Below are positions 1-4,149 of a stretch of DNA of 4,149 nt, in pieces. Within the stretch, counting starts at the first letter, position 1, and each line of letters opens with the position of its first letter. The DNA comes from a virus. Lineage: Duplodnaviria > Heunggongvirae > Uroviricota > Caudoviricetes. The position numbers and the translations under genes were made by a program. The DNA is taken from IMG/VR virus record IMGVR_UViG_3300029517_000099, one strand, 5' to 3'. The notes below the pieces were generated by a model, which was not told the DNA's origin, did no database searches, and saw only the letters and a list, made by a program, of their open reading frames with translations.

Positions 1-176
1 AATCAGCGAGTCAGCTTGGGAAGAAATGACCTGCTTATTCGCACCTTCCCTAATAAAATGTATTTCTCTGATATTATGTTTATTTGTATTAGCTCAGACT
101 TGACATCACAGGTTTCGTATATAGAACATCATCAAATCTGTCAGTTTGCTATGAATGAGATATAGTAATTGAAGAG

Positions 177-1210: not shown

Positions 1211-1323
1211 ACAGCGAATCAGATCAAATAAAACGCACATTTGTTAACATTTACACAAAGTCTGCGCGGGATATTCTGAAAGAATATCCATAATGTGGAG
1301 AGAATCTATTGAAGTGCATGGTG

Positions 1324-1414
1324 CCGGGTGCCTCCCGGTGAACAAAATGTTCGTGATACCTGTCGGCGACAGAAAAGGTTAATGGTATCACCCCACCGCA
1401 CAGGGGGATTCACC
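1324..1414. other. GC-rich island of nested inverted repeats (candidate structured RNA or protein-binding/recombination site)
   Basis: Within AT-rich non-coding DNA: CCGGG/CCCGG hairpin (1324-1338); outer pair GGTGAA (1337-1342) / TTCACC (1409-1414); inner 8-bp pair GTGATACC (1353-1360) / GGTATCAC (1384-1391) enclosing the palindrome TGTCGgCGACA (1361-1371); CCCC...GGGG hairpin (1391-1406). Confidence 0.3.
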
Positions 1415-1740
1415 ATGCAGGAGTTTTCTTAGCAAACTCACTGCGCGCCCGGCAACTCCCAACCACATAAAATGCGGAGTTTGTGGCATTTATGCATATA
1501 ACTCGCAGGAATTATCTTAAAAAACTGATGTCGATCCGGATTAAAAAGAAGCAGGTCATCATCAGATGACTGGAAAAAAGGAAAACAAAAAATACTCATC
1601 ATACAGTTTTGATTGCAGGGATGAGCCTGCTATGCACAATATGCAGAATATAAGCAAGATAAAAATATGCAGGCATATTATTTCGGATTTTGTTATTAAC
1701 ACAACCTTTTTAATAATCATTTGGCATACAATAAACCAGC

Positions 1741-1768
1741 CCAAAAAGAACCGCCTAAACAGGCGGTT
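1741..1768 (-). terminator. Candidate minus-strand intrinsic terminator
   Basis: 8-bp GC-rich stem AACCGCCT / AGGCGGTT with a 4-nt loop (1749-1768); on the minus strand it is followed by CTTTTTGG (plus 1741-1748). No T-tract on the plus strand, so it is unidirectional. Confidence 0.4.
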
Positions 1769-2022
1769 GGTCAATACAAAGGATGCTTCGTCTTTATTAT
1801 AGTAATCTGAGGCGTCGGGTGTCTTGTATCAGACAACATATTGTCCCGCTAAACAGCGAATTACAAACCACCCTGCAATGATCTCTCATCTCATTTTATA
1901 TGAGTTGACGACATCAGGATAACGCATCATCAGCCCCTGCCAAGAAATATCAAAACTCCCGCCAGCAATGTGTTATCACAATATTGTAAAAAAAACACAG
2001 CACCGAAACTATAACTGGTCTC

Positions 2023-3985: not shown

Positions 3986-4149
3986 AAATATTTACAGATG
4001 AAGTAAACCCGCCAATCAGGTTAACTGTGGCTGCGTTGAGGATGCATAATACATCAGAGGTTGCGGGGATTTCTCCCATAAGCGCTAACTTAAGGGTTGA
4101 ACCATCTGAAGAATGCGACGCCTCGGTGCCTCGTTAAGACGATGCCTCG

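Follow-up and report, generated by a model that had tools for sequence, protein, structure and literature searches.

Positions 1324-1414 of the window (the whole 4,149-nt stretch of DNA analyzed here) are almost certainly the structured core of a copy of STnc100 (RF02076), an sRNA family of gammaproteobacterial prophages. The best overall explanation is an STnc100 sRNA copy read from the minus strand of a lambdoid late region, a reading to which we attach a probability of roughly 0.8. An Rfam scan of the window places RF02076 on the minus strand at 1448..1262, with 85.5 bits—above the curated gathering score of 47 bits—and E = 4.8e-18. The match spans the full model (positions 1-206 of 206) and has 1324-1414 as its core; no other Rfam family overlaps 1262-1448 at E up to 10. 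The helices P1, P2, and P4, as well as the conserved sequence blocks of the family, are intact in the window copy.

The element is therefore real but ordinary, an already catalogued sRNA family in its canonical genomic position. The original prediction of a structured, multi-stem RNA other than tRNA is borne out, and the covariance-model search it proposed identified STnc100 immediately, on the minus strand. Its further claim that nothing known explains the segment does not survive: the family is catalogued, and some of its members are experimentally detected, Hfq-bound sRNAs.

Inverted repeats and the minus-strand fold

The four dyads from which the element was first recognized were all located in the DNA at the positions originally given, and the local rise in GC content is likewise real (0.556 at 1325-1414, versus 0.27-0.47 across most of the surrounding gap). 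The pairing segments, read in the DNA, are as follows:

1324-1328 / 1334-1338: dyad CCGGG/CCCGG
1337-1342 / 1409-1414: dyad GGTGAA/TTCACC
1353-1360 / 1384-1391: dyad GTGATACC/GGTATCAC, flanking CTGTCG/CGACAG
1360-1365 / 1367-1372: inner dyad CTGTCG/CGACAG
1391-1394 / 1403-1407: C run and G run
1315-1323 / 1411-1419: perfect 9-bp closing helix, TGCATGGTG with CACCATGCA (100% paired)
1340-1344 / 1348-1352: small hairpin GAACA/TGTTC, absent from the earlier list of dyads

The element extends beyond 1324-1414 and is closed by the 9-bp helix, which the description of four interlocking dyads had overlooked; that description also gave no strand. All four dyads exist, but GGTGAA/TTCACC overlaps the closing helix and is in competition with it; neither the Rfam structure nor the minimum-energy fold contains this pairing. 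On the minus strand, 1262-1448 folds at -68.5 kcal/mol (z = -5.1) and the core, 1313-1421, at -45.6 kcal/mol (z = -3.5); in each case 0/200 dinucleotide shuffles equal the observed energy. Folding energy nevertheless cannot assign the strand, because the plus strand folds as well as the minus strand (z = -5.0), and as a means of strand choice it was set aside as uninformative.

The minus-strand RNA forms a five-way junction composed of P1, P2, P3, P3b, and P4, which minimum-energy folds reproduce. Its features are these:

1262..1448, minus strand: full-length RF02076 match, model 1-206
1462..1457, 17 nt, 1439..1434, minus strand: weak promoter-like option 2, TTGGGA and GAGTTT
1455..1450, 18 nt, 1434..1426, minus strand: weak promoter-like option 1, TTGCCG and TGcTAAGAA
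1411..1419, minus strand: P1 5' strand UGCAUGGUG, 9 bp (minimum-energy fold, covariation)
1410-1408, minus strand: junction AAU, after the P1 5' strand
1392..1407, minus strand: P2 hairpin CCCCC-UGUGC-GG(U)GGG (minimum-energy fold)
1353..1391, minus strand: P3 hairpin, 8-bp helix GUGAUACC/GGUAUCAC (minimum-energy fold)
1340..1352, minus strand: P3b hairpin GAACA-UUU-UGUUC (minimum-energy fold)
1324..1338, minus strand: P4 hairpin CCGGG-AGGCA-CCCGG, abutting the P1 3' strand directly
1315..1323, minus strand: P1 3' strand CACCAUGCA (minimum-energy fold, covariation)
1290..1314, minus strand: single-stranded 3' tail CUUCAAUAGAUUCUCUCCACAUUAU, unpaired in the minimum-energy fold
1269..1289, minus strand: AT-rich tail hairpin GGAUAUUCU-UUC-AGAAUAUCC, no U-tract after it
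1267..1234, then 1233..1226, minus strand: weak terminator-like hairpin (~ -8 kcal/mol, long loop), then UUUUAUUU

P2 has 5 bp, a loop of 5 nt, and a single bulged nucleotide, U1395. P3 encloses the small hairpin CUGUCG/CGACAG, four of whose pairs are used in the minimum-energy fold, and corresponds to the variable middle region of the family, which is nested here and a pseudoknot in most members. P3b reads GGAC...GUUC in a sibling copy (L006:3239-3359), where an A-to-G change produces a G-U pair. P4 is 99.6% paired across relatives and its compensatory variants are rare, a near-invariance partly imposed by the patterns used to gather those relatives. The unpaired tail at 1290..1314 is a candidate pairing region, by analogy with the PasD sRNAs, whose seed is carried by the 3' tail, beyond the conserved domain (PMC8550237 supplements). 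The hairpin at 1226..1267 with UUUUAUUU is a possible 3' end of the RNA, and the promoter-like sequence at 1426..1462 would occupy the position held in relatives by a TTGACN/-10 promoter.

A multi-arm junction of approximately tRNA size invites comparison with a degenerate tRNA or a tRNA-like element, the more so as the 5-bp P4 abuts the 3' strand of the closing helix much as a T arm abuts the acceptor stem, and as genuine tRNA genes adjoin STnc100 copies elsewhere (L002:3043-3292, L006:4009-4160, L081:8146-8219). But the window element has five arms, a P4 loop of 5 nt rather than 7 with no T-loop motif, no anticodon features, and no anticodon arm of fixed length. ARAGORN finds 0 tRNA or tmRNA genes in the window, and Rfam returns no tRNA match there at E up to 10, in agreement with the earlier remark that tRNA hallmarks are missing. 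A tRNA-derived element is, on this evidence, highly improbable.

Relatives, covariation, and strand

Relatives of the element were gathered by three pattern scans, two of viral contigs and one of genome representatives, which together recovered ~310 loci and 274 cores, 200 of them distinct. Their hosts include Escherichia, Kosakonia, Enterobacter, Klebsiella, Raoultella, Citrobacter, Leclercia, Superficieibacter, and others. The divergent relatives tested score 57-137 bits against RF02076, all past the gathering score; the 85.5 bits of the window copy are below the scores of many relatives (up to 137 bits). Some prophages and viral contigs carry STnc100 cores in tandem arrays of 3-5 copies with a period of ~255 nt (L171, L256, L265, L283, L006). 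Beside the L081 copy, the tRNA begins at the base right after the Rfam match, and the sequence downstream of the copy at L099:6310-6431 resembles a tRNA 3' half, GGTTCGACTCCCCGGTGGCGGACCA.

In a MAFFT alignment of 150 distinct cores from Enterobacteriaceae prophages, P1, P2, and P4 together are 92.9% paired in the Rfam register, with ten pairs varying on both sides; because the gathering patterns fix parts of P1, P2, and P4, block conservation is inflated in these figures and covariation undersampled. This paired-cell level is reached by 0/500 shuffles, and slid controls attain 46-53%. Taking both possible P2 registers into account, 92.9-95.4% of cells are paired and 10-11 two-sided changes are found, with slid controls at 41-53%. 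Covariation is strong in P1 (GC 82 / AU 55; UA 55 / CG 45). The compensatory base changes that the original prediction had proposed to seek among homologous regions are thus present. For P2, shifting the register to give a UNNGC loop of 5 nt and a single bulged nucleotide, an arrangement that the Rfam consensus lacks, brings pairing to 97.2% versus 88.4% for the Rfam register, and the minimum-energy fold of the window core uses the shifted register too.

The alignment contains 76 G-U plus U-G cells versus 28 A-C plus C-A cells. An excess of this kind supports an RNA read from the minus strand, against a DNA cruciform, and this asymmetry together with the orientation of the Rfam match assigns the element to the minus strand. 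The segment had also been likened to a multi-arm protein-binding or recombination site, and a DNA-level site—cruciform, recombination site, or att scar—would draw on the fact that the inverted repeats exist in the DNA and that in silico both strands fold equally. However, relatives conserve pairing while sequence changes, and a DNA cruciform would have mismatches at the 76 G-U cells. The element also lies internal to the late region, away from the prophage boundary, and occurs both in tandem arrays and at the same internal position in many phages. The likeness to a DNA site consequently falls away, and we regard such a site as extremely unlikely.

A small protein-coding gene, or the remnant of one, is suggested by stop-free frames that cross the core (ORFs 1328-1432 (+) and 1306-1416 (-)) and by the annotation of a hypothetical protein over related copies in some genome records. 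Yet core length modulo 3 is evenly spread (60/55/47 among 162 variants), the small ORFs are without a Pfam match, and the observed variation suits base pairing, not codons. A coding remnant was rejected on the first two of these grounds, and a coding explanation of either kind is scarcely credible.

Departures of the window copy from the family

The window copy shares with STnc100 at large the conserved blocks UGGUGAAUCCCCC... and CACCGGGAGGCACCCGGCACCA, the helices P1, P2, and P4, and both position and orientation in lambdoid late regions. It differs in having two nested middle hairpins, no strong terminator, and weak promoter-like sequence.

The first of these differences concerns the middle region, in which, among relatives, the segment 3' of P2 complements the loop of the hairpin before P4. 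MAFFT columns are unstable here, and loop-strand pairing was therefore assessed sequence by sequence. At least 6 contiguous loop-strand pairs are found in 66% of 157 relatives versus 13% of cross-sequence controls, and the pairing is built from many different sequence pairs. This pseudoknot is missing from the Rfam consensus structure, and a loop-strand tertiary pairing outside that structure is likely, judging from these complementarities, in most STnc100 members. In the window copy and the L006 sibling, the partner lies 5' of a small separate hairpin, and the fold is fully nested, with no loop-strand pseudoknot. The multi-way junction, the near-invariant unpaired nucleotides, and the covarying loop-strand pairing of most members also bear on a different reading, rather unlikely in our estimation, in which the conserved core, beyond serving as an Hfq sRNA scaffold, is an RNA domain that folds autonomously and has a specific partner, protein or small molecule, in lambdoid late regions. 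If this were so, the window copy would represent a topological variant, its pseudoknot replaced by nested hairpins and the remaining fold kept.

The second difference concerns the ends of the element. A terminator (hairpin and U-run) is found in 152/195 relatives (78%), at a median of 45 nt past P1. The window copy has no intrinsic terminator shortly past P1: copies of the window and mEp460 type have only a weak hairpin and U-run, 81 nt past P1. The RF02076 terminator stem (model ~170-206) aligns to the AT-rich hairpin in the window, with the U-tract deleted. Upstream, many relatives carry TTGACN, 17 nt, and a -10 element, with a start 0-6 nt before P1, whereas the promoter-like hexamers of the window have 3-4 of 6 matches each; a scan for consensus promoters and terminators called nothing at the ends of the element, including no sigma-70 site just upstream. 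The missing terminator lowers confidence in a discrete sRNA from the window copy, not in its homology.

The weakness of the window terminator makes a cis-acting role within a longer transcript the strongest competing explanation for this copy: the folded domain would act as a leader or as a processing/stability element within the late transcript or the TolA-like mRNA, whose start would lie ~110 nt downstream of the Rfam match. The window and mEp460 copies, both without a strong terminator, lie directly upstream of a same-strand TolA-like gene, the promoter-like sequence of the window is weak, and the element is always co-directional with late transcription. Against this, most members have their own promoter-like site and a terminator ~45 nt past P1, discrete RNAs have been observed for relatives, and the genes downstream vary between copies (TolA-like, sialate esterase, holin). 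The TolA-like gene, further, has its own promoter-like site at 1210-1181. We consider a cis-acting role unlikely.

A riboswitch-like domain, sensing a ligand or a protein and controlling a downstream terminator, would suit the order of parts seen in the family: a promoter, a conserved multi-helix domain with near-invariant unpaired bases, a variable linker, and a terminator. Copies of the common E. coli type have one sequence, GGAGGGGC, both as the 3' strand of P2 and as that of the terminator, which in principle would allow this strand of P2 to pair with the 5' strand of the terminator. Where P2 or the terminator has another sequence, however, no matching change is seen, and an antiterminator switch based on GGAGGGGC was rejected on the ground that the identity is not kept across copies. 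The window copy is without any such terminator, no Rfam riboswitch family matches, and a domain of this type is very unlikely. The minus-strand STnc100 sRNA copy remains the preferred reading.

Genomic setting and possible function

The window belongs to a defective lambdoid prophage that lies at the Rac locus of E. coli. The series in strain LR-64-1 runs ompN, uspF, ydfK, pinR, tfaR, trkG, lysis protein, rrrD, and essD, continuing with two TolA C-terminal-domain genes, the STnc100 element, DUF1133, DUF1364, DUF1367, IS421, and hokD. Upstream of the element are the Q-like gene (DUF1133 and Phage_antitermQ), YbcO, and DUF1367; downstream are the two TolA_C genes, essD, and rrrD. The Phage_antitermQ match of the DUF1133 gene is marginal (26.1 bits vs a cut-off of 26), and Pfam also confirms YbcO, DUF1367, and the two TolA_C proteins. 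The element thus sits between a Q-like antiterminator gene and the late/lysis genes, on the late-transcription strand, which is the usual place of the family. In phage mEp460, a copy with 80% identity occupies the corresponding position, with Q on one side and a TolA-like gene on the other. A 201-nt query matches 1,568 of 5,426 complete E. coli genomes, 545 records at at least 95% identity, and the prophage with the window copy is found largely in commensal, animal, and environmental isolates. No annotated feature lies under the match in any listed RefSeq record carrying the window copy. At the edges of the window (1-49 and 4100-4149), homology ends at 50 and 4099 in most E. coli genomes; in LR-64-1 the IS421 transposase gene starts 33 nt past the right-hand window end, and other strains have IS1 or IS5 insertions inside the window region.

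Several other elements accompany the STnc100 copy. On the minus strand, 723-1151 and 177-572 are tandem lipoprotein-like ORFs with a TolA C-terminal domain (Pfam 78 and 55 bits), preceded by a promoter-like TTGAGC, 18 nt, TATAAT at 1181-1210. The pair looks like a moron-type insertion before the lysis genes, and the second ORF is frameshifted in LR-64-1. At 2087-2117, just downstream of the Q-like gene (minus strand; stop codon ends 2196), lies AAAAAAACCGC-TTAAT-GCGGTTTTTTT, a hairpin of 14 perfect base pairs flanked on each side by A and T runs (-23.7 kcal/mol, z = -3.6). A short PR'-type transcript probably terminates at this hairpin, which could act as a bidirectional terminator; sub-threshold Rfam matches to isrK, AgrB, and OrzO-P coincide with it. 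Between these features, 1737-1825 (minus strand) holds a promoter-like AAGACA, 18 nt, TATAAT (10/12 matches), followed by a terminator-like hairpin AACCGCCTGTTTAGGCGGTT and CTTTTT, and could yield a transcript of ~50 nt. Rfam gives no match there, and homologs in sequenced phages are almost absent. When the gap at 1455-2195 is compared with sequenced phages, similarity is confined to the 60 nt that directly follow Q, so the comparison is of no use for dating the insertion or accounting for it.

The STnc100 copy lies in an insertion-tolerant zone that has the Q-like gene and its probable terminator on one side and the late genes on the other; it is co-directional with late transcription and followed by the two TolA-like genes, then holin and lysozyme. 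Transcription would run on the minus strand from roughly 1440-1420 to 1262-1226, giving an RNA of ~170-210 nt in which the five-way junction—P1 (1411-1419 with 1315-1323), P2, P3, P3b, and P4—is followed by a largely single-stranded 3' tail. By analogy with EcOnc27/sRNA103 and the more distant PasD1/2, this RNA may bind Hfq and pair with mRNAs via its variable 3' tail, and the conserved 5' domain may, as relatives suggest, provide a stable scaffold or a site to which a partner binds. We give the trans-acting, Hfq-dependent mechanism an even chance for the window copy, held at that level because its promoter-like and terminator-like signals are weak.

The literature on other copies frames these expectations. 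In E. coli O157:H7 EDL933, the 11 STnc100 copies annotated through Rfam were all transcribed, and a northern blot confirmed one of them (PMC5331693). A copy just downstream of stx2B overlaps the Hfq-bound EcOnc27/sRNA103, overexpression of which raises fimZ and espA transcripts (PMC12711010, PMC7873438). Such sRNAs lie in an insertion-tolerant zone from PR' to the lysis genes in eight Sakai prophages (Tree et al., PMC4104026), and STEC outer-membrane vesicles contain STnc100 (PMC12370729). The window copy belongs to the same family as EcOnc27/sRNA103 of EHEC Stx2 phages and occupies the same PR'-to-lysis zone; EcOnc27/sRNA103 is Hfq-bound and northern-detected. In Stx phages, however, BLAST finds only the conserved 5' block of the window (P1 5' strand and P2), and the studied O157 and EPEC copies are ~72% identical to the window copy over part of its length only. 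The effect of sRNA103 on fimZ and espA is not transferable to the window copy, because the tails differ. EHEC copies are, in addition, paired with a convergent anti-sRNA of the AsxR/AgvB type, described as a convergent dyad, whereas the Rfam scan of the window yields no AsxR or AgvB match and the window is also without the GC-rich terminator typical of the family.

EPEC PasD1 and PasD2 have been reported as structural relatives of STnc100 (bioRxiv 10.64898/2026.05.13.724894). These Hfq-dependent sRNAs of EPEC E2348/69 share with the window copy a location downstream of Q and a similar organization: P1 and a P2-like hairpin are present, and the structured 5' domain leads into a seed-bearing 3' tail. 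They differ in lacking P4, in scoring below the STnc100 gathering score, and in keeping a pseudoknot-type middle; the PasD seed, UGUGAG, is absent from the window tail. A PasD identity was rejected for the window copy because PasD is without P4 and falls short of the gathering score. The window copy classes as STnc100 proper, unlike PasD, since the divergent copies tested pass the gathering score and PasD1/PasD2 fail it. PasD1 (L123:1961-2133, E. coli E2348/69) keeps P1, the P2-like hairpin, and the loop-strand pairing and has lost P4 (AGCGGGAGGCGCC); the window copy is the reverse, with P4 kept and the pseudoknot lost.

The medical interest of the family lies in copies that stand beside Shiga toxin genes, are Hfq-bound, occur in vesicles, and overlap reported HUS-predicting variants, and to this the window copy adds little. 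The remaining interest is at the level of the family, in its loop-strand pairing and modular tails, and none is specific to the window. For annotation, the intergenic island should read as an STnc100-family sRNA gene, or as the relic of one. The window copy illustrates the modular evolution of these elements, in which middle regions, 3' tails, and terminators can be swapped while the 5' domain is conserved.
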